In this document: piece after piece, positions 1 through 51,556 of the stretch
Layout: every line of letters begins with the position of its first letter
How positions within the stretch are numbered: the stretch's first letter is position 1
Source of the DNA: a virus
Taxonomy: Duplodnaviria > Caudoviricetes
Direction: 5' to 3' (one strand)
IMG/VR virus record: IMGVR_UViG_3300048778_000586
Location: 1-51,556 of that record
Length of the DNA stretch: 51,556 nucleotides
Program-made: the position numbers and the translations under genes
Notes under the pieces: generated by a model
The model's input: the letters and a program-made list of their open reading frames with translations, nothing else
Database searches by the model: none
What the model was told of the DNA's origin: nothing

Positions 1-114
1 GAAACTGCCGAAGCTATCGGCGCTCACAAAGCCATCAAGCACCGGAAAGAAGAAACGCCCGGCGCAGATATATCAATACAGGCAACAGGCTCGAAGGAAG
101 TGCCTAACAGGTAA
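1..114 (+). CDS. 3' end of an ORF truncated by the window edge (probable integrase-proximal cassette gene)
   Basis: Open frame from base 1 (ETAEAIGAHK...EVPNR) to TAA 112-114; contains GCCTAAC at 102-108. Confidence 0.5.
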   Translation, partial: ETAEAIGAHKAIKHRKEETPGADISIQATGSKEVPNR

Positions 115-141
115 TTCAACCAACCTAGTTGGCATAATCAC
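102..141 (-). other. putative attI-like recombination site
   Basis: GCCTAAC at 102-108 reads GTTAGGC (GTTRRRY core) on the minus strand, 33 bp upstream of the integrase ATG, the usual attI position. Confidence 0.5.
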
Positions 142-4454: not shown

Positions 4455-6527
4455 ATGACCAGCACTGAAATCAAAGCAAACTCAGGCCACCTCACCCCGA
4501 CCCTCTCCCCCAAGGGTGGAGAGGAGGACAAGTTGCAGAGGCCGTTTTTTGAGGCGTTCATGCCGCGATACCGCGGCACGGTCTGGGAAAATGCCCGGCG
4601 CTTCCGGCTCATTGGTAAAGCCTATGAATCCATGCCGCCCGAACAGAACGGCTATTTCAATATCGCCACCTGCCGCCATCTGACCGGTCCGCTAACTGCC
4701 TGGCAACATCCCGATATCCGAAAAATTCTCGTCCGCAAAGCCATCCAGTCGCAAGGGTCGCTCGTCATTGATCTGGTCATTCCCTACATCATCGAGCATG
4801 ACCCGCGCAATACCTTGCTGCTGTTCGAGACTGACCCCAAGGCGATGGATTATTGCAGCATCCGGCTCATGGACACGCTCAAACAGCATCCGGTCATCGG
4901 CAACATGATCCTGGACGTGCAAAAGGTTGATCGTAATAACGTGACCACGACGTTCATCAAGTTCCCCGCCATGACGCTCTTGGTGGGCGGCTTAAACGAC
5001 AGCAACACGGCGTCGCTGGCGTGGCCGAACGTGCTCATAAGCGAGGCGTGGTTCCACAAGGCCGACGGGTTGCTGTTCAAGGCGTTTGGACGCACGGCGC
5101 AGTTCGAGCATACCTGCAAGATTCTGGTTGAATCCCAGGCGGGAATGGAGGGAGAGGATTTCGCGCGCGAATGCGACCTGGCCGTGCGCGTGCCGCTGAC
5201 CTGGGCGTGCCCGCATTGCGGCGGTCGGCAGGAATGGGAGTTCTCACAAAAAAGGGCGGAAGAGTTCAAATGCAGAATGCAGAATGCAGAATGCAGAATG
5301 CAGAATGAGAAACCAAAACCCGGCACCTATGCGGGCATGATCATACCGCACTCGACCCGGATGGCGGATGGCGCGGAAATCGAGGTCAGCGCGGATGAAC
5401 GGGCACTCGGCGCCGAGTGGGAATGTTATTGGTGCGGAGCGCGGCTTGCCGACACGCCACCATTACGCCGGCAGTTGATGGACAGTTATCAGCAGATCAT
5501 CCCATCACCGGCGCCGCGCGCGGTTGTGTTCGACTGGCCTGAAGAGGCGAGCCTTGGTATATCCTTTGCCGAGAGCGTCCGGCATTTTCTCACCGCCGAT
5601 GCCGCGCAAAAGGCCGGTAACATCATCCCGAAACAGGATTGGTATATGCAACGGCGCGCACGGACATGGAACCCAGCCCTGACAAGGCCGCAGATTGATA
5701 TTGCGCCCGGCAGTTATGATCCGAACCAGATCGTCCCCGATGAGCATTCGCGTAACATGGCCGTGGATTGCCAGCAGGATCAGGTGGTCATGGACAAGAC
5801 AGGCAAATCCGTCACCGGCTGGTTCTGGTACATCGTCCGGGTGGTGGACAAGTTCGGCAATAGCAAACAACTGGCGCGCGGCTATGTAAAATCGTGGGAG
5901 GAATGGATCGCCGTCCAGAAAAAGTGGAAGGTGCCGAATGACCGTGTGGTGATTGATATAGGGCAATGGCCAGGGCAGATTACCCAGCGCGCGGCGGATG
6001 AACGCGAAACCGTGGCCGTCAACAAGATGACGATGCTCGGCTTTATGAAGGACCGAACGGTGACGTGGTATTTGCTGGCCGCGGAACTAATGCGCCGCCA
6101 GTTCAAACATCGGGACGGCCAGATACGGCCGTGGTCGCCGCCGCAACCCATCCCCGCCACAGTGTTCGACAATGACGGGCGCCGGCAGGTGATTCATCTC
6201 AAGAAAATACGGTGGGACAACATGACGTTCAGGCTACAAGTGGACGCCCTGCGCAGCGGCGCACCGGGTATGCCGAAGATGGAAGTGCTGGGCAGGGAAT
6301 TCCTGGACGCGCAGACACAGGCCATGGAGCGCGGCGACCTGACTTATGAGCGGCAGATGGACGCGCAGTATTACATCCCGGAGAAAAGACAGTTCAAAGA
6401 ATTGCGACCGAATGACCATTACATGGCGTGCGAGGCGATGCTGCTGGTGCGGCAGGCCATGGACGGCATGATGGGGCATTTGGCCATTGCAGAAGATAGT
6501 AGTCAGGAGTCAGTAGTCAGGAGTTAA
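4455..6527 (+). CDS. terminase large subunit, lambda gpA-like
   Basis: ATPase region (KILVRKAIQSQGS, VLISEAW, LVESQ), CPHCG and CYWC zinc motifs, nuclease motifs MAVDCQ, VVIDIG and NDHY; lies upstream of the portal. Confidence 0.85.
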   Translation: MTSTEIKANSGHLTPTLSPKGGEEDKLQRPFFEAFMPRYRGTVWENARRFRLIGKAYESMPPEQNGYFNIATCRHLTGPLTAWQHPDIRKILVRKAIQSQGSLVIDLVIPYIIEHDPRNTLLLFETDPKAMDYCSIRLMDTLKQHPVIGNMILDVQKVDRNNVTTTFIKFPAMTLLVGGLNDSNTASLAWPNVLISEAWFHKADGLLFKAFGRTAQFEHTCKILVESQAGMEGEDFARECDLAVRVPLTWACPHCGGRQEWEFSQKRAEEFKCRMQNAECRMQNEKPKPGTYAGMIIPHSTRMADGAEIEVSADERALGAEWECYWCGARLADTPPLRRQLMDSYQQIIPSPAPRAVVFDWPEEASLGISFAESVRHFLTADAAQKAGNIIPKQDWYMQRRARTWNPALTRPQIDIAPGSYDPNQIVPDEHSRNMAVDCQQDQVVMDKTGKSVTGWFWYIVRVVDKFGNSKQLARGYVKSWEEWIAVQKKWKVPNDRVVIDIGQWPGQITQRAADERETVAVNKMTMLGFMKDRTVTWYLLAAELMRRQFKHRDGQIRPWSPPQPIPATVFDNDGRRQVIHLKKIRWDNMTFRLQVDALRSGAPGMPKMEVLGREFLDAQTQAMERGDLTYERQMDAQYYIPEKRQFKELRPNDHYMACEAMLLVRQAMDGMMGHLAIAEDSSQESVVRS

Positions 6528-7773: not shown

Positions 7774-7880
7774 ATGGTTGAGAGTTGGAAAATGGTTGAG
7801 AGTTGGAAAATGGTTGAGAGTTGGAAAATGGTTGAGAGTTGGAAAATGGTTGAGAGTTGAAAGTTGAAGGTTGAAAGTTA
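7774..7880 (+). repeat. tandem repeat, 5 x 18 bp (ATGGTTGAGAGTTGGAAA), running into family A heptamers
   Basis: Units start at 7774, 7792, 7810, 7828, 7846. Confidence 0.95.
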
Positions 7881-8148: not shown

Positions 8149-10818
8149 ATGAAGCTTTTACTGCATAACGGCGCTCGAGCGGTTGCGCGGCCTGATACTG
8201 GACGGCTCGGCGAGTCGTCCCTACCTATTGAATGGCAGGGCGCATTGCGGCCGGATGTGACACAGGGCGAGATCGAACGCGCTAATAATCAGATTCAGCG
8301 TTTCGCGCGGCTCCATGAGCAGATGCGCACGTTATTCGATTCCAATGACCGGATGCAGCGCAGTTACGACAGCTCGACCACCACCCAGTTCAATGCGGAC
8401 ATGAGGGGTACGTTCGGCAGCGCCAATGCCGAAATAATGACGAGCGATTATTCGACGCGCGCGCGCTCCCGCACCATCGCCAAGGACACACCCCAGGGCA
8501 AAGCCGTCATCCGCACGTTCCAAAACAATGTCGTGGGCGATGACCCGTTCAAGCTCGACATGCGGTTCGGCACTTGGACGAAGAAAAAAAATGCCGTGAG
8601 CGGCCAGTCCGAACGCCAGTTCGTCGAGGACGAAGAGGTCAATGCCGCCATCGAGGCTGAATGGGAAATTGCCGGCCAGCCGGAAAATTTCACGGTTAAA
8701 ATGAACATGAGCCGGATGGAGGCGGAACGCATCATGGAGGCCAGTGCTGTGCGCGATGGATTCATTTTAATGCGCCATCAGCGCGGCTTCCCACGCAATC
8801 CCTTCAGGTACGCCGTGGAACTACTCGAGTGCGACCGTCTTCAGAGCGCTTTCATGGGAAAATCCGATACCGGAAATCCCATCCGGTTCAGCATCGAGTA
8901 TGACAAACAATGGAATTATCCGGTGGCTTACTGGATTTTGACGCGGCACCCGGGCGACATCTTCGGACAGTCCACCATGGCCGGCTCGGTCGCCGGCGGC
9001 AATGGCTATGGCGGATCAGACAGCCAGGGACAATTGTTCCGAGAGCGCATTGACGCCGGGGACATCGTGATGTTCAATAATCTCCGCGACCGGGCGGAAC
9101 AAGATATCGGATTTACCGAACTCGACGCCAGTGTGCAATCGCTCTGGCGGCTGTTCCAATACGAAAAGGCGCTCACCTACGCGGCCATTGCGAGTTGCAT
9201 GAAGCCGTTCTGGATCAAAAAGAATTTCCCGACCGGGATGCAGTTTACCACGGAGGAGATTGAAACCTTCCTCAAGAACGCCAATGTGGGCACCGAAGGC
9301 GGCGCGGGCGCGGCGGCGGACGGCGCGCCGGGCAACAGCGGGGCGACCTCGCGCCAGCAACGCATCGCCCAGCGCGTCAGCGCGGATGTGCCGGGATCCA
9401 CCCTCGACCTACCTTGGGGTCTGGAATTGATGCAGACCGACCCGAAGTTCCCCATCGAAGCGGCCCACGAATTTCGGCAGGATAATCAGCGCGACATCGC
9501 CGTGGCCACCGGCACGTCGTATCAGGACGTTTCCGGCGATTTCCAGAACCTCGGCTTTGCCGCGGCGCTCATGTGCCAGACGCCCAAGCAGGATTATTGC
9601 AAAATACGGCAGCGGAATTTCATTGATTGCGCCGTGCGCCCCGTGTTCAGAGAATGGCTGCGCGCAACGATTTTATCCGGCCGGTTCGATGAAAAATATC
9701 CCGATATCGTCGTCTCCATCACGAAGATCGAGGATTATGTGCAGGCGGCCAAGTTCAAAGGCAAACGCTGGGCTTTCGTCAATCCGCTCGTGCAGGCGCA
9801 GACGCTCATCATTATGATGGAGGCCGAAATCCTCTCGCCGCAACAGGTGCAGGATCAGTTGCCCGATGGCGTCAGCATCGAGACTCTTTACACGCTCATC
9901 GCCGAGGCCAAGGCCGAACACACAAAACACGGATTGGATGTCGAGGATGCTTCAAACATGGACGTGACACGACCCACCATCAGCAAGGGCGAACCAGGCG
10001 AAATCAGGCCCGCCCCGAAGGAATTAGGCGCTGGCGGTGCTGCGCAACCCATTCCCGCACGCCGACCGGCCAATCCTGTCAGAAGCCAATTGGGCCGCAA
10101 CCTGGACACCTCGGATTCCGTGCTCTATCTCGTCCGGCACGGTGAGACTCAGTTGAATGCGGACGGCATGACTCGCGGCTGGGCCAACCCGCCTCTGAAT
10201 GATGCCGGCCGGAAAGAGGCGGCCGATGCCGCCGACGAACTGGCGAACCGCGGCATCACCCTTATCGTCACATCCGACCTGACGCGCGCGGTTGAAACCG
10301 CCACCATTATCGGCGAGAAAATAAACGCGCAGGTCGTCGTTGATCCCGGATTGCGGCCGTGGGGATTCGGGCCGGAGATTGAAGGCAAAAATTCCGTTGA
10401 GGTCGCCCCGCAGATCGAGCATTACGCACGCAACCCCGATGAACGCCCCGCCGGCAGTTATCCCGATGGGCAATTGCCCGAGACATTCAATCAATACCGT
10501 AAGCGGATTTTCACGGCCATTGAGAAAATCCAGAACACATATCCGTCCGGTGCCACTGCCATCGTCACCCATTACCGCACGTTCAAGGCGCTGGAATCAC
10601 GCACGGAAGGCCATGATGTGGACGTGGACACGTTCATCGCGCGCGCACCGGACAATCCCGGGTCGGTCTATGTGCTCGAAAATGGGGAGCTGTCGGAGAA
10701 GCTACCTGAGAAATCCAGCCCCGAAAGCGTTCGGGGTTCAAGCCGGAAAAGAAAACCGCGTGGCATCTCGAAACAGACGATGGCGCTGATACAAGGGCAA
10801 GGGGATGGGAAATCGTAG
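8149..10818 (+). CDS. lambda-family portal protein fused to a C-terminal histidine phosphatase domain
   Basis: Portal motifs (RARSRTIAKD, VELLECDRL, PVAYWI, YQDVSGDFQNLGFAA, RWAFVNP) followed by LYLVRHGET...PLN..GR...TSDLTRAVET...IVTH. Confidence 0.9.
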   Translation: MKLLLHNGARAVARPDTGRLGESSLPIEWQGALRPDVTQGEIERANNQIQRFARLHEQMRTLFDSNDRMQRSYDSSTTTQFNADMRGTFGSANAEIMTSDYSTRARSRTIAKDTPQGKAVIRTFQNNVVGDDPFKLDMRFGTWTKKKNAVSGQSERQFVEDEEVNAAIEAEWEIAGQPENFTVKMNMSRMEAERIMEASAVRDGFILMRHQRGFPRNPFRYAVELLECDRLQSAFMGKSDTGNPIRFSIEYDKQWNYPVAYWILTRHPGDIFGQSTMAGSVAGGNGYGGSDSQGQLFRERIDAGDIVMFNNLRDRAEQDIGFTELDASVQSLWRLFQYEKALTYAAIASCMKPFWIKKNFPTGMQFTTEEIETFLKNANVGTEGGAGAAADGAPGNSGATSRQQRIAQRVSADVPGSTLDLPWGLELMQTDPKFPIEAAHEFRQDNQRDIAVATGTSYQDVSGDFQNLGFAAALMCQTPKQDYCKIRQRNFIDCAVRPVFREWLRATILSGRFDEKYPDIVVSITKIEDYVQAAKFKGKRWAFVNPLVQAQTLIIMMEAEILSPQQVQDQLPDGVSIETLYTLIAEAKAEHTKHGLDVEDASNMDVTRPTISKGEPGEIRPAPKELGAGGAAQPIPARRPANPVRSQLGRNLDTSDSVLYLVRHGETQLNADGMTRGWANPPLNDAGRKEAADAADELANRGITLIVTSDLTRAVETATIIGEKINAQVVVDPGLRPWGFGPEIEGKNSVEVAPQIEHYARNPDERPAGSYPDGQLPETFNQYRKRIFTAIEKIQNTYPSGATAIVTHYRTFKALESRTEGHDVDVDTFIARAPDNPGSVYVLENGELSEKLPEKSSPESVRGSSRKRKPRGISKQTMALIQGQGDGKS

Positions 10819-10878: not shown

Positions 10879-11379
10879 ATGAAAGATCACATTGCCAAAA
10901 CCATTGCCGACCTGAAATCCGAACGTGCCAAGCTGGACGAAATCATCGCCACGCTTGAACGGTATGGCGCCGCCACAAGTGATGCGCCGGAAGTAGCCGT
11001 TCCCGCCGAACGGCTCGGCGAGCCGTTCTTATCTAAAACAAGAAAATACACCCGCCGCGCGGTAAGGCCGATTTCTACAACAGCCACACGCAACCTGAAG
11101 GTTGCGGCTACAAAAGTTACGGGTATGGATTTGGACAAGCCGACCACGGTTGGCGGGGCAATGAAGTTGATCTGCAAGGCGTACGTCAAAAAATCCTTTA
11201 CGATGCAGGATGTGATCGCGGCACTCGAAGCGGACAAGGATTACAATAAATTCTATCAGGAATCAAGCGGTGTCTCGACGGTCTATGCGAATCTGGCTTA
11301 TTGGAGCAAGACCGGAAAATTGGAAAAGATCGGCGAAGGCGCGGATGCGACCTATAAGGTTTTGGATTTGGATTTTTAA
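10879..11379 (+). CDS. hypothetical protein (coiled-coil plus winged-helix-like C-terminus)
   Basis: IADLKSERAKLDEIIATLE N-terminus; in-frame family B insert. Confidence 0.6.
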   Translation: MKDHIAKTIADLKSERAKLDEIIATLERYGAATSDAPEVAVPAERLGEPFLSKTRKYTRRAVRPISTTATRNLKVAATKVTGMDLDKPTTVGGAMKLICKAYVKKSFTMQDVIAALEADKDYNKFYQESSGVSTVYANLAYWSKTGKLEKIGEGADATYKVLDLDF

Positions 11380-11417
11380 GAATTTACCGCAATATCGCGG
11401 TGAAAAAAAAAGGAAAT

Positions 11418-11588
11418 ATGGTAAAAAATACAACACAAAAAACCACGGTCACGAAAACCCCCGCCGCAACGACCGGCACCGAACACATCGTTGCGCCCGC
11501 CAAGTCGGTGGTCGGTGAACAAACGATAACTCACCCGGTCAGCAAGCCGATCCCGGGCGCTACGAAAACCGTAGCCGAGACGAAGTAA
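11418..11588 (+). CDS. small Thr/Lys-rich hypothetical protein
   Basis: ATG 11418 after a purine-rich leader. Confidence 0.4.
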   Translation: MVKNTTQKTTVTKTPAATTGTEHIVAPAKSVVGEQTITHPVSKPIPGATKTVAETK

Positions 11589-11846
11589 TCTCTCACGGAC
11601 TCACAGCCACACAGCAAGTTGCTGTGTGGCCTAACACGGATGAATTTGGCGGGGGCGTGCATGTCAGGCGCGGAATACTTTTTCCAGCCCCAAGTGTGCG
11701 CCCTACGCCGCTTCTGAAGGAGTTGAAGGTTGAAAGTTGAGGGTTGAGAGAAGGAAAATGCCACCTCACCCCTTCCCTCTCCCCCCAAGGCGGAGAGGGA
11801 GAAGATGGTAAAGTTGAAGGGCTGGGTGACTTCATGGCGTTTTCGT

Positions 11847-14360
11847 ATGCCAGTGAAACATTCCCGCGCCGCTTCCCACGCCGTCCATCTCTATCGTTAC
11901 GCCAAGGTGGATCCCACCAGCGGCGATGAAAAGGAACGCACGTTCCAAGTCGCTTTCTCTTCCGAACATCCCGTCCCGCGCAAGGCCAATGACTTGGATG
12001 TCGAACTCGGCGCCTGTTCACGGAAGGGTGAGAAATACCTGGAAGTCTTGAGCCATGCCGCCGGTGATTATGATATCTCGCCCATGAACAATTCCGGCGC
12101 CCTGCTCGACGAGCACCAGGAACAATTCCATTTGGGCAACATCAAACACGCCGAAGTCTCCACCGACTTGTTGGGTCGCGCCATGATCTGGTATGACGGT
12201 ATCACCGACCTTTCCAAAACCCGCGCCGAACAGATGCGCTCCGGGTCGCGGCCGCATGTCTCTTTTGGCTATTTCCATACCCGCTTTTTGGGCGACATGA
12301 AGTTGCCCGATGGCCGCTCCGCAAAACGGTTCGCGTGGCTCGGAGATGAAATTTCCAGCGTGTCCAGTCCCGCCGATCCCAAAGCCGGCAAACACCGCAG
12401 CGCCGGCGATCTGCCGCATTGCCTTCATTGCGGCCAGGAATTTGATGATGACGATCTGGACAAGGACGGCCGCTGCGCCGATTGCGGGCCGGTCGCGCGC
12501 GCGCTCAAAGACCGCATTATCCGCGCCGCTGACAAGGACGTTTCCGCCAATGACCTCGGAACCAAAGTGGCCACTGCCGCGGAGCAGGATGATCGCTTCA
12601 CCGGCAGGGACGACAAAGGCACACGCACCGGCTGGGTGCAAGTCCAGGACTTGACCCATGACGGCACGAACTGGTCGGCCACTCTTAATTGCTCCAAGGA
12701 CGGTAAAAAATACGAGGTGCCCGTCGCCGTTGCCGATGATGGCGCGGTCAAACTCGGCGCCGAAAAACGCAGCGAAGTTGACTTGAATAAATTTGTATCC
12801 GAACCCGGACCAGAAAAGAAAAACAATTTACGAACCAAGCCTATGGAACTCGACGAAAAATCAATTCGTGCCAACGAACGCGCTACCGCCGTGGCTGAAC
12901 TCACTCCCGAGATTCAAAAAACCACGCGCGCCACTGTCGTTGCGGAATTCCAAACTCAAAGCGCCGCCCAGAAAACCAAGCGCACCACCCTTCGTAACGA
13001 GCTTCATCCGCTGGCGGATGCCTTTATCAAGGACCACGGCACCAAATGGGTTGGCGACACCGGCAATGTCCAGGTCTTGGGTGAGCGCATCCGCGCTCTC
13101 GAGCAGGAAGCCTATGACGCGCCGGAAGATCATACCCTCCCGGAAATCCGCACCGATTTCAAAGTCAAGGTTCAAGACCTCATCTCCCGGTCCCGTGCTC
13201 CCAAAAAACAGGAGGAAGCCGCCATGCTGCCGGATAAATTGGCCAGCCGTTGCTCGCTGGGTAATGTTTTCAGAGCGGCCAGTGAAGCCTCTCAAAAAGG
13301 AAATCGCAGCTCTTGTTTCATACCCACAAGTGGTGCTGAAAAAGAGGCGAATGATGAACTTCGTCGCGCTGCCGCCGACTTCCCGGGCGGTTTGAACATT
13401 TTCGGCGAAGGCGGACTGCATTTGCCCATGAACATGCCGTCCGGCCTGTTCCGCAAGGACGGCCGCAGCGGACGCATGACCCGCGATGCCCTGGCCACTG
13501 ATTTCCCGACCGCCGGCGCCTTGATTACACCCCAGTTTATCTGGCCCATGATTGATTTGCTCCGCAACATGCCCGCGCTTTCCCGTCTTGGCATGGTCTG
13601 GTTGAGTGGTGTGGTTGGCAATCTCGTTCTACCCCGACAGGAAGCTGCCACCATCGCACAATGGCTTCCTGAAGGTGCACAATTGACAGCTTACGACCAG
13701 GTGCTCGGCCAGATCAAGATGTCACCGCACCGCGTCGGCAGCCGCCAGAATTATTCACGGCTTGCACTCATTCAAACCACCCCCGATTTCGAGGCCATGG
13801 TCATACGCGACCACATGGCCGTCATCGCCCTCGCCATTGATGAAGCGGGAATCAACGGCCAAGGCGCCGCCGACCAGCCGCTGGGCATCCTGAACCAGCC
13901 CGGCATCGGTTCGGTTGCCTTTGGCGGCGCGGCTGCCACTGCTTATGCCCGAATGGTGGCCATGGAAACCGCCATCCGTAAATCCAACATTTACGATCCG
14001 GTTTCGTTCCTCTCCACCAGTGTCGTGCGCGGCACGTTGCGCGTCACGCCCGCCACTCTCACCGGTTCAACCGTTGTCAGCGGCTCAACCAACTCCGTCT
14101 GGACGACCGAGAACGGCGAGGAAAATGTCATCGGCCGGCCCGCCGTGGACAGCCAACAAGTGCCCGGCGATATTATGATCGCCATTGCCGCCAATCATCT
14201 CATTGGTGCACAATGGGGCGGACTGGCCGTGGTGCTCGATACTTTGTCACGCGCGGATTTCGACGAATATAAACTGTCCATCAACACTTATGTGGACTTT
14301 GCACTGCGCCACCCGCAGGCCGTCTGCCGCAGCGCGGATTCTCTGGCTGTACTCACTTAA
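11847..14360 (+). CDS. prohead protease / scaffold / HK97-fold major capsid polyprotein
   Basis: Protease motifs VAFSSEHPV, LLDEH, VSFGY, EISSVSSPAD; capsid motifs GALIT.Q...IDLLRN, GNLVLPRQ, QPLGILN, VDFALRHP. ATG 11847 follows the TGACT motif. Confidence 0.9.
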   Translation: MPVKHSRAASHAVHLYRYAKVDPTSGDEKERTFQVAFSSEHPVPRKANDLDVELGACSRKGEKYLEVLSHAAGDYDISPMNNSGALLDEHQEQFHLGNIKHAEVSTDLLGRAMIWYDGITDLSKTRAEQMRSGSRPHVSFGYFHTRFLGDMKLPDGRSAKRFAWLGDEISSVSSPADPKAGKHRSAGDLPHCLHCGQEFDDDDLDKDGRCADCGPVARALKDRIIRAADKDVSANDLGTKVATAAEQDDRFTGRDDKGTRTGWVQVQDLTHDGTNWSATLNCSKDGKKYEVPVAVADDGAVKLGAEKRSEVDLNKFVSEPGPEKKNNLRTKPMELDEKSIRANERATAVAELTPEIQKTTRATVVAEFQTQSAAQKTKRTTLRNELHPLADAFIKDHGTKWVGDTGNVQVLGERIRALEQEAYDAPEDHTLPEIRTDFKVKVQDLISRSRAPKKQEEAAMLPDKLASRCSLGNVFRAASEASQKGNRSSCFIPTSGAEKEANDELRRAAADFPGGLNIFGEGGLHLPMNMPSGLFRKDGRSGRMTRDALATDFPTAGALITPQFIWPMIDLLRNMPALSRLGMVWLSGVVGNLVLPRQEAATIAQWLPEGAQLTAYDQVLGQIKMSPHRVGSRQNYSRLALIQTTPDFEAMVIRDHMAVIALAIDEAGINGQGAADQPLGILNQPGIGSVAFGGAAATAYARMVAMETAIRKSNIYDPVSFLSTSVVRGTLRVTPATLTGSTVVSGSTNSVWTTENGEENVIGRPAVDSQQVPGDIMIAIAANHLIGAQWGGLAVVLDTLSRADFDEYKLSINTYVDFALRHPQAVCRSADSLAVLT

Positions 14361-31367: not shown

Positions 31368-31480
31368 ATGGTTGAGGGTTGAAGGTTGAGAGTTGAGAAA
31401 TGGTTGAGGGTTGAAGGTTGAAGGTTGATAGAATAAAAAATAAAGTCTCAACCTAAAGGTTGAGGTTACAAGGAAAAAAT

Positions 31481-35363: not shown

Positions 35364-35373
35364 AATGGTTGAG

Positions 35374-35618
35374 AGTTGAAGGTTGAGGGTTGAGAGTTGA
35401 AGAAGGGAAAGGCCACCTCACCCCGGCCCTCTCCCCCAGAGGTGGAGAGGGAGTTGAAGGTTGAGGGTTGAGAGTTGAAGAAGGGAAAGGCCACCTCACC
35501 CCGGCCCTCTCCCCCAAAGGTGGAGAGGGAGTTGAAGGTTGAGGGTTGAGAGTTGAAGAAGGGAAAGTCCACCTCACCCCGGCCCTCTCCCCCAGAGGTG
35601 GAGAGGGAGTTGAAGGTT
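35374..35618 (+). repeat. 3 x 78-bp tandem composite of family A and family D
   Basis: G[GT]CCACCTCACCCC recurs at 35411, 35489, 35567. Confidence 0.95.
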
Positions 35619-38988: not shown

Positions 38989-39060
38989 AAAAAATAGTTG
39001 AAGGTTGAAAGTTGAAGGTTGAAGGGAAAAACAACCACAAAGAAACTCAAGTCGAATTTT

Positions 39061-41668: not shown

Positions 41669-41774
41669 ATAAATGGTTGAGGGTTGAAAGTTGAGGGTTG
41701 AGGATTTACGGAGAATTTGACTTGGGTAGATTTTTGATTGCGGAGCGATAGGGACATCGCTCCCTACCTGATTT

Positions 41775-45134: not shown

Positions 45135-45350
45135 ATGAACGAACTTAATAAATGCCGTTGCGGACAAACTCCTGTGGTGAACGAAAAACAGACTCCACTT
45201 GGCCTCGGTCAGCGTTTAACGCTATGGGAAATTGAGTGCAATGTCTGTGGCGTGAAGGTATGCGCCAGAGAGCGAGAGAAAGCAGTTGAGCTTTGGAACA
45301 TGGCTAACCATAACGAAAGGGTAAGGGCGGTGGGAATAGTTGAAGGTTGA
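45135..45350 (+). CDS. Lar-like zinc-ribbon protein
   Basis: ELNKCRCG...IECNVCG...AVELWN. Confidence 0.6.
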   Translation: MNELNKCRCGQTPVVNEKQTPLGLGQRLTLWEIECNVCGVKVCAREREKAVELWNMANHNERVRAVGIVEG

Positions 45351-45380
45351 AGGTTGAAGGTTGGGAAAAAGAAAAGCGAT

Positions 45381-49521: not shown

Positions 49522-50049
49522 ATGACGAATTCAAAATTCACCGGTCTTCGCCAGGCTTCTACCCGGCAAGGAATTCAGAATAGCGGCGCGAAAGGGATCC
49601 CGCGTCGCCAAGGCTATGCAGGACAAGCTGCGCGTCCTACCACGGATGGCGTGCGTCCCCACCAGACGGAGTTGTTTGAGCCGACCATTGCGCAGCAGTT
49701 TGAGGCGTGGAAGGCCACGCCCGGCGGCGCCCAGGTCATGCGCATCGCTTACGCCGTTGCCGCCCGCTACGGCCGCCGTTATATCGAACGCGGCCGGCGC
49801 GTGAGCGTGCGCCTCATCTGGGAGATGTTGCGCGATAATATCACGTTCATCCGCGCCCGGATGAAGGCCAAGGGCATCATGCTCGAGAAGCTGGACGGGT
49901 TCGCGTTGAACGATCATTTCCACGCGCATGTGGCACGGCATATCATGGGGCACCGACCGGAATGGCAGGGGATGTTTGAATTGCGCGAGCTGGGCGCGGC
50001 CAGAAATAAACGGAAGGTAACGATCATTAAAATTGACCAGCCGGTTTAA
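49522..50049 (+). CDS. phage hypothetical protein with a repeat-derived N-terminus
   Basis: RLIWE.LR...LND.F.A.VAR......PE..GMFELR; first ~40 aa derive from nested repeats. Confidence 0.6.
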   Translation: MTNSKFTGLRQASTRQGIQNSGAKGIPRRQGYAGQAARPTTDGVRPHQTELFEPTIAQQFEAWKATPGGAQVMRIAYAVAARYGRRYIERGRRVSVRLIWEMLRDNITFIRARMKAKGIMLEKLDGFALNDHFHAHVARHIMGHRPEWQGMFELRELGAARNKRKVTIIKIDQPV

Positions 50050-50112
50050 CCGCAGAGGCGCAGAGGCGCAGAAGAATAAGAAAACCAATAAGGAAAGCAG
50101 GAAATCAGGAAG

Positions 50113-50523
50113 ATGAAGGATAGAATTGTTATTTTGGGAATTATTGGGGTGCTTTGCGCCTTGACGGTTAATTCCTCGGCGATGGACCGGTGGGAGGCAT
50201 TGTCTCAAATCGAGTCCGGCGATTGCGATACTTGCATTGGCCCGTCGGGTGAAGTATCTCGATATCAGATTTTGCCCTGCGTCTGGCGGGAATATACGAA
50301 ACTGCCGTTGAGCGCGGCTACCAACCCATTCACCGCTCGGAATGTCGCGGAGACAATCATGGCGGCGCGCATTCGTTATTTTTATCAAATCGGCGCGCAA
50401 GGGACCTCGCGCCCTACCGATCAGGAATTGTATCTGCTCTGGCACCGGCCGGCGCGGGTGCTGCGTCCTAAACCCGCCGAACGCGAACGCGCGGAACGAT
50501 TTGAGAATTTGTGCAGGAAATGA
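50113..50523 (+). CDS. secreted lysozyme-like / transglycosylase protein
   Basis: Signal peptide; ALSQIESG...G..GEVSRYQI catalytic Glu-Ser motif. Confidence 0.7.
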   Translation: MKDRIVILGIIGVLCALTVNSSAMDRWEALSQIESGDCDTCIGPSGEVSRYQILPCVWREYTKLPLSAATNPFTARNVAETIMAARIRYFYQIGAQGTSRPTDQELYLLWHRPARVLRPKPAERERAERFENLCRK

Positions 50524-50579
50524 TGAAAGGCGCAATCTACGGCGCGACATAAATGTCGCGGCTACATGGATGAATATAA

Positions 50580-50822
50580 ATGAGCAGGACGTTTCATAAA
50601 GAACATGAGACTGTGGATCGTCAAACGCCGCGGCGCCGGCGGTTTTATTGTGGCGTTGCGCGCAAGATGATTTTTCCGTCGCATGACGCGGCCATTCAGG
50701 CCGTCGCCGGCTTTGAGCCTTCGGTGCGGACGGCCATGGAGTATAGGGCGTATCATTGCAAGTTTTGCGGCGGGTGGCATCTGACAAGCCAACCGTGGAA
50801 ACCGAAAATAGTTGAAGGTTGA
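50580..50822 (+). CDS. small zinc-binding protein
   Basis: RAYHCKFCGGWHLTS. Confidence 0.6.
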   Translation: MSRTFHKEHETVDRQTPRRRRFYCGVARKMIFPSHDAAIQAVAGFEPSVRTAMEYRAYHCKFCGGWHLTSQPWKPKIVEG

Positions 50823-50846
50823 AGGTTGAAGGTAAAAAACACGAAG

Positions 50847-50963
50847 ATGAAACTTTGTTTCCCAACTGAAATTTTGAAGCAGCACCTGGTCGTGCTCGGC
50901 AAGACCGACGCTGGCAATAAAACACTTTTACGCGAATTACACGAATTGCCGCTAATTATTTAA
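50847..50963 (+). pseudogene. N-terminal remnant of a HerA/DUF87-like P-loop ATPase
   Basis: PTEILKQHLVVLGKTDAGNK, a decayed H..vLGKTGAGKS motif, runs into a family F repeat. Confidence 0.5.
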
Positions 50964-50974
50964 CCAGAAACCGA

Positions 50975-51190
50975 ATGAACAAGGCGAATGACATTCTGGA
51001 AATGGTCAAGATGGGAGTCTGTGGCGCACAAGCCAGCCTCGTCGTCGCGGAAGAATTGTCGGCGCCGGAACGCCGGCTGTCCCTGCAACATACCATTGAT
51101 CAGTTGATGCCGTTGCGCGGATTGCTATTAACGGCAGCGGGAGAAATCAATCTAGAACTTTACGTAGAGCCAAGCAACAGCCGCGAATGA
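50975..51190 (+). CDS. hypothetical protein
   Basis: ATGA overlap with the next gene. Confidence 0.5.
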   Translation: MNKANDILEMVKMGVCGAQASLVVAEELSAPERRLSLQHTIDQLMPLRGLLLTAAGEINLELYVEPSNSRE

Positions 51191-51432
51191 AAACAACGCT
51201 TGACCAATCTGCCGCGTTCAACGAAGTCAGCGACTCCCGAAAACTGGAAGCGCAAGGGCTGTTGGCTGCGACGGCTTGTTATGCCACAGGCCAGCACGTC
51301 GCTAACCTCACAATGCCGTATGTGTTCTGGCGATTTCAATACTGGCTCAAGGTGAAGGACATGACATACACCCAAATTGATGAAGCCGTGAATCGAGGAA
51401 AACTCGTCCCATGTGACTGCATGGTGGCATAA
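51187..51432 (+). CDS. hypothetical protein in an integron-like cassette
   Basis: Contains GTTATGCCAC (51278-51287); its exact complement GTGGCATAAC (51424-51433) overlaps the stop codon. Confidence 0.6.
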   Translation: MKTTLDQSAAFNEVSDSRKLEAQGLLAATACYATGQHVANLTMPYVFWRFQYWLKVKDMTYTQIDEAVNRGKLVPCDCMVA

Positions 51433-51556
51433 CGGCATAGTTGAGCAGCCCCGCACCAAAGACAAAACATGAAAACATTTTTAATAATCGGAGTTCAAAC
51501 GATATGGGCAATCGGAATATGGGAATTGCTATTTCGCCGTTTTGTCTTTGGTAAGG
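51427..51556. mobile_element. attC-like hairpin (truncated by the window end) enclosing the next gene's start
   Basis: GCATAAC core; perfect 14-bp inverted repeat ACCAAAGACAAAAC (51455-51468) / GTTTTGTCTTTGGT (51539-51552); ATG at 51469. Confidence 0.65.
51469..51556 (+). CDS. 5' end of the next cassette gene (truncated)
   Basis: MKTFLIIGVQTIWAIGIWELLFRRFVFGK, open to the window end. Confidence 0.5.
   Translation, partial: MKTFLIIGVQTIWAIGIWELLFRRFVFGK

Follow-up and report, generated by a model that had tools for sequence, protein, structure and literature searches.

Does a tailed phage carry an integron of its own, in which the cassette genes begin inside the recombination hairpins? This question is raised by IMG/VR virus record IMGVR_UViG_3300048778_000586, a single contig of 51,556 nucleotides (nt) that we treated as a virus record and analysed in its entirety (hereafter, the window). 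A first-pass annotation, made from the letters alone, reported an integron-type integrase gene (int) at position 142 and, at the opposite end of the window, three inverted repeats around two small open reading frames (ORFs). It proposed that these repeats belong to cassette recombination sites (attC) that contain the start codons of the genes, in an inverted design that serves shuffling. All three repeats are present exactly where they were reported, and the integrase is real and integron-like. Here we examine both ends of the window together with related loci that were fetched at 46–72% identity, 13 from IMG/VR and the others from metagenome contigs. We conclude that the end of the window (approximately 51157–51556) and its start (1–1110) are very probably the two sides of one tailed-phage integron. 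This integron would comprise an IntI-type recombinase (142–1110), an attI-like site (106–141) and, upstream, at least two small cassettes bounded by nnnnAAC boxes with predicted cleavage between AA and C (Table 1).

An integron-type integrase and its relatives

The best NCBIfam model for the int product is TIGR02249, ‘integron integrase’, which matches in one stretch over profile positions 3–313 of 315 with 244.8 bits; the XerC model gives 109.8 bits in two stretches. Identity to the IntI of Aliivibrio fischeri is 35% over the full length, and the IntI-specific segment LPGRLAVKYKNSSREFRWQWLFPS aligns without gaps with LPNAIAKKYPHRAKSYGWQYLFPS of that protein. The reading frame is intact, Pfam detects SAM-like and catalytic domains only, and this is the sole recombinase domain among the 55 window ORFs that were scanned with Pfam. 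By its score, the integrase is a divergent member of the IntI family or belongs to a sister clade.

A search for relatives returned 1,241 proteins at E ≤ 1e-20, many of them on contigs of 40–50 kilobases (kb). Integrases that are 46–65% identical to that of the window are carried by 13 IMG/VR viral contigs, and phage head, Mu B-like and Mu Gam-like genes occur in the related loci. The Mu B-like transposition protein and Mu Gam-like protein are encoded in loci of the integron family (L001, 1086–2234; L007, 887–2020), so some carriers may be transposable phages that have no need of the integrase for lysogeny.

A conserved attI-like site beside the integrase gene

Directly upstream of int, a block of around 36 nt (AACAG...CAC in the window) is kept in the window and in each of the 23 related loci shown, and nothing farther upstream is conserved. 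The start codon of int (142) begins 1 nt past this site and the gene reads away from it. Pairwise nucleotide homology between loci begins at AACAG or no more than 7 nt from it. L030 and L031 illustrate this: from AACAG on they are 88% identical over 1,480 nt, and upstream they are unrelated. By comparison with classical integrons, crossover at this attI-like site is predicted between A107 and C108.

The AAC of the attI-like site also anchors inverted repeats. In 14 of 21 loci, a perfect inverted copy, (T)GTTnnnn, of the 8–15 nt that end at this AAC lies no more than 500 nt upstream, compared with 7.5% of random anchors (n = 6,219); arms of at least 10 nt are found in 10 of the 21 loci and at 0.8% of random anchors. 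In a wider search, GTT...AAC units form chains of up to six (L003) with gaps of 77–120 nt. The consensus of attC boxes is RYYYAAC/GTTRRRY. Positions 1–107 of the window look like the end of a cassette (cassette 1) because they end in GCCTAAC, which fits RYYYAAC, and abut the attI-like block. Frame 1 is open across positions 1–111, outscores the other two frames in codon usage (+0.042 per codon) and stops at a conserved TAA (112–114); its translation of 37 amino acids (aa) has no relative in the protein library.

Four copies of CCAAAGA around int were considered as arm-type or operator sites and dropped, as they are not conserved in relatives. A perfect inverted repeat of 12 base pairs (bp) inside the 5′ end of int (149–160/215–226) has ACC(C)AAAGA in common with the 14-bp arms that begin at 51455 and 51539. 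It is kept in the closest relatives (L023 and L024), but not across 20 relatives, among which 52.5% of cells pair, no better than in slid controls.

A family of attC-like hairpins

The gap sequences between successive units (n = 19) were delimited by the GTT...AAC units alone. In their minimum-energy folds, the nnnnAAC and GTTnnnn boxes pair with each other in 7 of the 19 and z is below −2 in 8; of the short bulges, 27 are on the 3′ arm and 9 on the 5′ arm. When 13 of the gaps are aligned, 82.3% of cells pair, compared with 67.8% in shuffled columns and 27–49% with slid partners, and in the main helix (helix 2) 98.1% of cells pair, with compensatory changes in seven of eight pairs. At the level of the family, the layout is therefore that of attC sites: an imperfect hairpin that has boxes, an unpaired spacer, bulges confined mainly to one arm and a loop of variable length and sequence. 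Many of the family’s boxes read GTTC..., which departs from GTTRRRY.

These 13 gaps, with no window sequence among them, were used to build a covariance model (R1); a MAFFT alignment of all 19 misplaced five of the 5′ ends. Searches with R1 recovered all six gaps that had been left out of training. At E ≤ 0.1 the model finds 50 sites from 24 sources, 37 of them outside the training set; all 50 have the orientation of int, with 47 located upstream of that gene. The only match in the window, on either strand, is 51157–51284 (18.9 bits, E = 0.0088), the site that we call attC2. Its 3′ part, TTGGCTGCGACGGCTTGTTATGC, agrees with the family consensus; its left box is ambiguous, either ACTTTAC at 51157–51163 (by the model) or CTAGAAC at 51152–51158 (by eye). 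A further model, R2, includes the window site; its E-value for 51157–51284 is not independent and was not used as evidence. Setting the left attC box by lowest constrained energy gave over-long sequences and was likewise set aside.

R1 also finds the attC sites of classical integrons. In 70 loci with classical integrases, it identified 50 sites at E ≤ 1, of which 45 are upstream of intI on the int strand. The remaining five all fall in one bacterial genome locus (L133, 11771–17448), downstream of int and on the opposite strand, which we tentatively take to be the Treponema-type layout with an inverted integrase. Matches were obtained in 25 of the 70 loci, and not in L155 itself, the Aliivibrio fischeri array that served as the classical control (other classical integrons were found in Marinobacter, Microbulbifer, Photobacterium and Halomonas loci). 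When folded in the same orientation, the Aliivibrio fischeri array has the layout of the phage family, with an AAC box first, then a 2 × 2 internal loop and two single-base bulges on the 3′ arm.

Complementary boxes at the two ends of each cassette

The first-pass annotation had singled out complementary core sites at cassette ends, and these proved to be a property of the family. Covariance-model matches delimit 44 cassettes, from the window and 17 related loci. In 43 of the 44, all four variable bases of GTTnnnn complement the nnnnAAC box at the int-proximal end of that cassette (mean of 3.98 of 4), whereas full complementarity with the box of their own hairpin is reached in 2 of 41 (mean of 1.85 of 4). 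Such a trace would be expected had each cassette once been closed on itself and opened between AA and C. The Aliivibrio control has the same signature, in that the GTTnnnn of one site complements the nnnnAAC of the next site toward intI.

The window pair GTTATGC/GCATAAC is among the 43, and the boundary between cassettes 2 and 1 is at 51432/51433, marked by GCATAAC (51427–51433). The value of this assignment comes from the comparison with related loci. Against dinucleotide-preserving shuffles of the whole window, inverted-repeat seeds of 8 nt (loop of ≤100 nt) number 190 compared with 105.8 expected, seeds of 10 nt (loop of ≤150 nt) number 32 compared with 10.5, and one seed of 14 nt was observed compared with 0.02 (reached in 1 of 100 shuffles). 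Taken alone, the 8-bp and 10-bp pairs are at chance level and the 14-bp pair is unusual; the two shorter pairs gain significance because of the related loci. An initial sceptical reading (chance repeats, and the conserved block as an attP core), adopted because those pairs were at chance level, was overturned by the AAC-anchored repeats, the chains of units and the complementarity in 43 of 44 cassettes.

Beyond the boundary lies the 5′ part of a second site, attC1, which the end of the window cuts 4 nt past the right arm of the 14-bp pair. GCATAAC is followed there by AG-TTGAGCAGC, and the first 23 nt resemble the 5′ consensus of the family, AACG...AG.U.AGC; the 5′ model match (7 bits, E = 8.3) is not significant. 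An ATG at 51469 is 42 nt into the site, an offset within the range of the relatives. Position and analogy thus make attC1 a candidate site.

Cassette genes start inside their own attC sites

An inverted design, with the start codon inside the hairpin, had also been proposed, and the relatives bear it out. Among the 48 attC sites that have a following boundary, 41 contain a start from which an int-strand ORF extends beyond the attC, and 28 of these 41 ORFs end −15 to +60 nt from the next boundary, often with an ATGA overlap. In the relatives, upstream ORFs commonly end 6–60 nt past the cassette boundary, inside the next attC. Because the cassette genes are on the int strand, attC stands at the 5′ end of the gene and contains its start codon. 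The polarity of attC relative to int is classical, and it is the genes inside the cassettes that are turned round: they read toward attI, not away from it as in the classical orientation. In the window, codon scores favour the + strand for the cassette genes (+0.063 per codon for ORF81, the gene of cassette 2, compared with −0.181 for a 101-aa ORF on the opposite strand and 0.19 for held-out core genes; +0.093 for the upstream gene ORF71), which gives them the same direction as the phage’s own genes; nearly all long ORFs of the window are on this strand.

DNA-methyltransferase domains (C5, N6/N4, Dam and Methyltransf_11, by Pfam) were identified in 6 of 10 tested among the longer ORFs that start in this way. 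The cargo of the relatives includes orphan DNA methyltransferases, helix-turn-helix proteins and zinc-ribbon proteins, and that of the window consists of ORFans.

Breakpoints at a cassette boundary in other samples

Sequences from the last 5 kb of the window recur in 20 public peat and freshwater metagenome runs from 14 studies; two of the runs are possibly the source. In run X17, a contig of 6,766 nt ends at 51434 and another begins at 51430. In run X4, two different sequences are joined before 51430/51431, and a different sequence follows 51434. The only relative of the ORF81 protein, P0122 (128 aa), shares residues 1–29 at 90% identity and nothing thereafter, with the likeness breaking 4 nt before the GTT box; P0122 is therefore the same attC-encoded N terminus on a different cassette body. 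The suggestion that cassettes are shuffled is supported indirectly by assembly graphs that branch at 51430–51434 and by a protein that shares only the 29 attC-encoded residues of ORF81.

Other breakpoints in these samples were noted upstream of attC2. Coverage gaps were seen at 50420–50821 (X3) and 50394–50732 (X4), as well as a joint from 50415 to 50810 (X8), from contigs and short flanks only. The sequence CAATAAAAC (50915–50923) pairs with GTTTTATTG (50642–50650) in the manner of a cassette end; one X8 contig begins at 50917, and the 32 nt at 50926–50957 recur in other X17 and X8 contigs. The stretch 50915–50957 may be a decayed or a different kind of site. About 29 nt at 51110–51138 contain TAACGGCA, an 8-mer identical to the boundary at 51430–51437, and form the overlap of two X8 contigs that end and begin there, so that this could be another exchange point, inside ORF71.

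The two ends of the window

The first and last parts of the window are probably not directly contiguous in a circle. No terminal direct repeat of at least 10 nt was found in the window, and a direct join from 51556 to 1 was rejected, as no GTT box follows. Such a join would let the ORF that begins at 51469 continue as far as the TAA at 105–107, whereas codon scores favour frame 1 in 1–111. A piece is probably missing between the two ends, because the direct join leaves the hairpin incomplete and because GTTAGGC, the expected partner of the GCCTAAC box, is absent from the window.

Contigs of runs X17, X3, X4 and X8 continue for 161–1,052 nt past 51556. Exact-pattern scans of viral and metagenome contigs for sequence beyond 51556 gave no match, with near-identical records possibly outside the scanned set, and the phage GenBank collection held no match that would extend the window end. 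None of the proteins of the window’s end region adjoins int in the loci of the relatives. Among 16 further window proteins that were checked (7 of them just downstream of int), only two have relatives in these loci, and both are just downstream of int. A 105-aa ORF there (2614–2931) is 41% identical to an attI-adjacent cassette ORF of L005 (5676–5975), and the same gene is therefore found both inside and outside arrays.

Weighing the alternatives

The integron reading is directly supported by the anatomy of the locus, the covariation of the hairpins, the complementarity signature, the classical polarity and the population breakpoints at one cassette boundary. Several observations weigh against it. 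The integrase score of 244.8 bits is below the curated TIGR02249 cut-off of 265. The window has one complete attC only, the second weakest of the 50 R1 matches, and its left box reads TAC in the model alignment. The attC1 half-site was detected by neither covariance model, and when the first 20 nt of the window are appended to its end, the resulting stability is matched by 29% of random segments. No GTTAGGC is present among the window GTT...AAC pairs with arms of at least 8 nt, and no attC upstream of 51157 or of ORF71 was found by the model in the window, so the array may be short or partly decayed. Neither ORF81 nor the other cassette genes of the window belong to a Pfam family. Finally, no excised circle or reordered array was seen in assembled contigs, which cannot show rare forms.

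The alternative that survives best, although we think it unlikely, grants that the family is or was active and holds that the window array is a decaying remnant whose sites no longer recombine. It would account for the poor rank and degenerate left box of attC2 and for ORF71, which ends inside attC2 as a cassette gene would and yet has no attC upstream. It would also account for a possible older unit, 50642–50650/50915–50923, that has no detectable hairpin; this pair and another, 49899–49907/50480–50488, are cassette-like and have no model match. On the other side, different sequences are joined exactly at 51430–51434 in two samples, a second protein has the same attC-encoded N terminus on another body, the 10-bp complementarity of the cassette ends is still perfect and the frame of int is intact.

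It is improbable that the integron, if real, is a piece of bacterial chromosome that was picked up by the phage or misassembled with it. Codon usage is less phage-like here (−0.045 for int and +0.063 for ORF81) than in the held-out core genes, published phage integrons are mostly captured from hosts (PMC9892861), and the contig has int at one end and the cassettes at the other, so that their adjacency depends on an unseen join. However, the integrases of the 13 IMG/VR viral contigs have phage genes near the array in several cases. One genome each of 185,579 species yielded, by comparison, a single close relative (57% identity), on a 2.4-kb contig of a Chthoniobacter metagenome-assembled genome; the remaining kept matches are classical integron integrases, at 32–39% identity. 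In addition, the cassette genes follow the direction of the phage genes, opposite to that in the classical control, and the end of the window recurs across 14 studies.

We regard it as very improbable that the hairpins are RNA-level elements, for translational coupling or mRNA stability, rather than recombination sites. The start codons and ATGA overlaps inside the hairpins, their position on the transcribed sense strand and the covariation are all compatible with structured RNA. Such elements do not account for GTTnnnn boxes that match a box 100–800 nt away and not that of their own hairpin (3.98 compared with 1.85 of 4), for the homology of loci and proteins that stops at the boxes or for a model that recovers classical attC sites upstream of intI. 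Least probable of all is an ordinary int–attP module of a temperate phage, in which the conserved non-coding block beside int could be the attP core and the end repeats (expected approximately 106 and 10.5 times per genome at these spacings) would be chance or generic regulatory sequences: it fits an int that is the sole recombinase among 55 scanned ORFs, but not the AAC-anchored repeats of 14 of 21 relatives, the signature of 43 of 44 cassettes, the 50 of 50 hairpin matches on one strand, the recovery of classical attC sites by the same model or an integrase that has SAM-like and catalytic domains only.

Relation to known systems

The phage system shares with classical integrons an intI whose 5′ end lies beside a recombination site and which is transcribed away from it. 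It also shares the order of the site (an nnnnAAC box, then a short internal loop, a stem whose 3′ arm has single-base bulges, a variable loop and a GTTnnnn box), the complementarity of GTTnnnn to the box at the int-proximal cassette end and the strand relation between attC and intI. It differs in that the ORFs of the classical control are on the non-int strand (5,871 nt compared with 1,065 nt), whereas the phage cassette genes are on the int strand; the phage array is read toward int, with each attC at the 5′ end of a gene. The integrase is, moreover, just 32–39% identical to classical IntIs, and the carrier is a phage. In classical integrons, recombination of the bottom strand is said to fix the orientation of cassettes for expression from a promoter near attI (excerpt of PMC13108822).

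Integrons have been reported in phages. As excerpted, a survey of 10,705 NCBI phage genomes (Qi et al. 2023, PMC9892861) lists three complete integrons, one In0 and 17 clusters that lack an integrase, and the complete ones are subsets of host arrays or class 1 fragments (PMC9892861). Those genomes resemble the window in having integron integrases, attC sites and cassettes, and the cluster of Polaribacter phage P12002L also contains DNA methyltransferase genes (PMC9892861). The window integrase differs in belonging to a large clade of its own, with cassettes that are inverted; the excerpts of PMC9892861 hold no mention of start codons inside attC.

In Treponema-type integrons with an ‘inverted integrase’, as described in excerpts of PMC3607928 and Cury et al. 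2016 (10.1101/030866), int and the cassette genes also share one strand. There it is the integrase that is turned toward attI, whereas in the phage system the cassette genes are turned and the window int is transcribed away from its attI-like site. A lambda-type attP–int region has a tyrosine recombinase gene beside a conserved site in a phage genome. In the window, the conserved site is just approximately 36 nt long, with conservation that stops at one base, and its flanks are cassettes with attC sites, not attP arms. Arm-type attP binding requires an extra N-terminal domain, and Pfam detected no arm-binding domain in the phage integrase. Our literature searches returned no description of a clade that combines classical attC polarity with inverted cassette genes that start inside attC. 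The phage integron is a variant of integrons with an apparently new cassette design.

Features of the window

The genes and sites discussed above are listed in Table 1, together with three structural genes of the phage.

Table 1 Positions of genes, sites and inverted repeats in the window
Feature	Position	Strand	Basis and remarks
Cassette 1, int-proximal end	1–107	+	Position and box; ends in GCCTAAC (102–108)
attI-like site, AACAGGTAATTCAACCAACCTAGTTGGCATAATCAC	106–141	+	Conserved block directly upstream of int
Integron-type tyrosine recombinase (IntI-like), 322 aa	142–1110	+	NCBIfam, best model TIGR02249
Large terminase	4455–6527		PHROGs
Portal protein	8149–10818		PHROGs
Major head protein	11805–14360		PHROGs
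ORF71, upstream gene	50975–51190	+	TGA overlaps the ATG of ORF81 (ATGA) inside attC2
attC2, complete attC-like site	51157–51284	+	Model R1; holds the 8-bp stem, the ATG of ORF81 and right box GTTATGC (51278–51284)
8-bp pair, CAACAGCC/GGCTGTTG	51175–51182/51257–51264		74 nt between arms; brackets ATG at 51187
ORF81, gene of cassette 2	51187–51432	+	Starts in the attC2 loop; stop TAA inside the next box, GCATAAC
Cassette 2 end complementarity, GTTATGCCAC...GTGGCATAAC	51278–51433	+	GTTATGC/GCATAAC
10-bp pair, GTTATGCCAC/GTGGCATAAC	51278–51287/51424–51433		136 nt between arms; right arm contains the TAA of ORF 51187–51432
attC1 (candidate), 5′ part only	51427–51556	+	GCATAAC followed by GGCATAGTTGAGCAGC and the 14-bp stem; truncated where the window ends
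14-bp perfect pair, ACCAAAGACAAAAC/GTTTTGTCTTTGGT	51455–51468/51539–51552		70 nt between arms; ATG at 51469

Several repeats were recorded elsewhere in the window and in one relative. Tandem arrays of the heptamer GTTGARR are mostly on the + strand (at least 20, compared with 4 on the − strand); they are apparently intergenic and many directly follow ‘aaATG’ (for example, 1732–1752, 7849–7876, 11722–11749, 31371–31423, 35368–35558, 38997–39024, 41676–41703, 45339–45359 and 50811–50831). Contigs of other samples break or join at these arrays, as at a joint from 50072 to 50806 in X17 and X8, and the arrays could be regulatory sites or hot spots of homologous exchange. The octamer CGCAGAGG occurs three times at 50045–50072, just after ORF 49522–50049, and the 30-nt stretch 50043–50072 is found in other contigs with different flanks. 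In L013, three more attC-like matches and two GTTAGGCATA...TATGCCTAAC units lie at 11365–12117, 5–6 kb downstream of int, a second attC cluster that stands apart from the integrase.

Discussion

The phage integron would work as follows. Each cassette begins with its own attC hairpin; on the int strand, the hairpin opens with the box in which cleavage between AA and C is predicted, and its single-base bulges are in the 3′ arm. The gene would start in the 5′ arm or loop of this attC, read through GTTnnnn into the cassette body and stop in or just past the next boundary, often with an overlapping ATGA. With genes so placed, the array reads as a translationally coupled operon toward int. Its transcription presumably starts at phage promoters that lie upstream and also serve the phage genes, rather than at one close to attI. 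The integrase would fold the + strand of attC and exchange it, between AA and C, with the 106–141 site or with another attC, and such exchange would excise and insert cassettes. We infer that excision and insertion by the integrase proceed through folded single strands and that the cargo serves the phage.

A bolder reading is possible, and we offer it tentatively: that these are phage-native, inside-out integrons, in which each gene lies in its own attC and the operon ends in int, with recombination linked to expression, swapping of methyltransferases and perhaps insertion of whole phages. As the gene is on the recombinogenic attC strand and starts in the hairpin, one attC-encoded N-terminal peptide can recur in different cassettes. 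During transcription of the array, the recombinogenic strand would be free as the non-template strand, which would link expression to recombination, and phages would swap anti-restriction methyltransferases and other accessory genes through the array. Given that int is the only recombinase found in the phage, it might also insert the whole phage into a host attC or attI as a giant cassette.

Integrons are familiar as systems by which bacteria capture genes, and the few phage integrons reported so far looked like captured fragments of their hosts. The locus described here points to a separate clade of integron integrases, apparently a large one, carried on peat and freshwater phage contigs; each integrase has an attI-like site of its own and an array in which cassettes number up to six. 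These cassettes are laid out the opposite way to the textbook arrangement: attC is at the 5′ end of the gene, whose start it encodes, and the array reads toward the integrase. Its strand arrangement is suited to testing whether transcription drives the folding of attC. An active system would give phages a site-specific means of shuffling accessory and anti-restriction genes, which would mirror the anti-phage defence cassettes recently reported in bacterial integrons (preprint 10.1101/2024.07.02.601686, in excerpt). Activity would also mean that attC structure and protein coding can overlap across tens of codons, and it would offer a new angle on how genes and attC sites become joined into cassettes.

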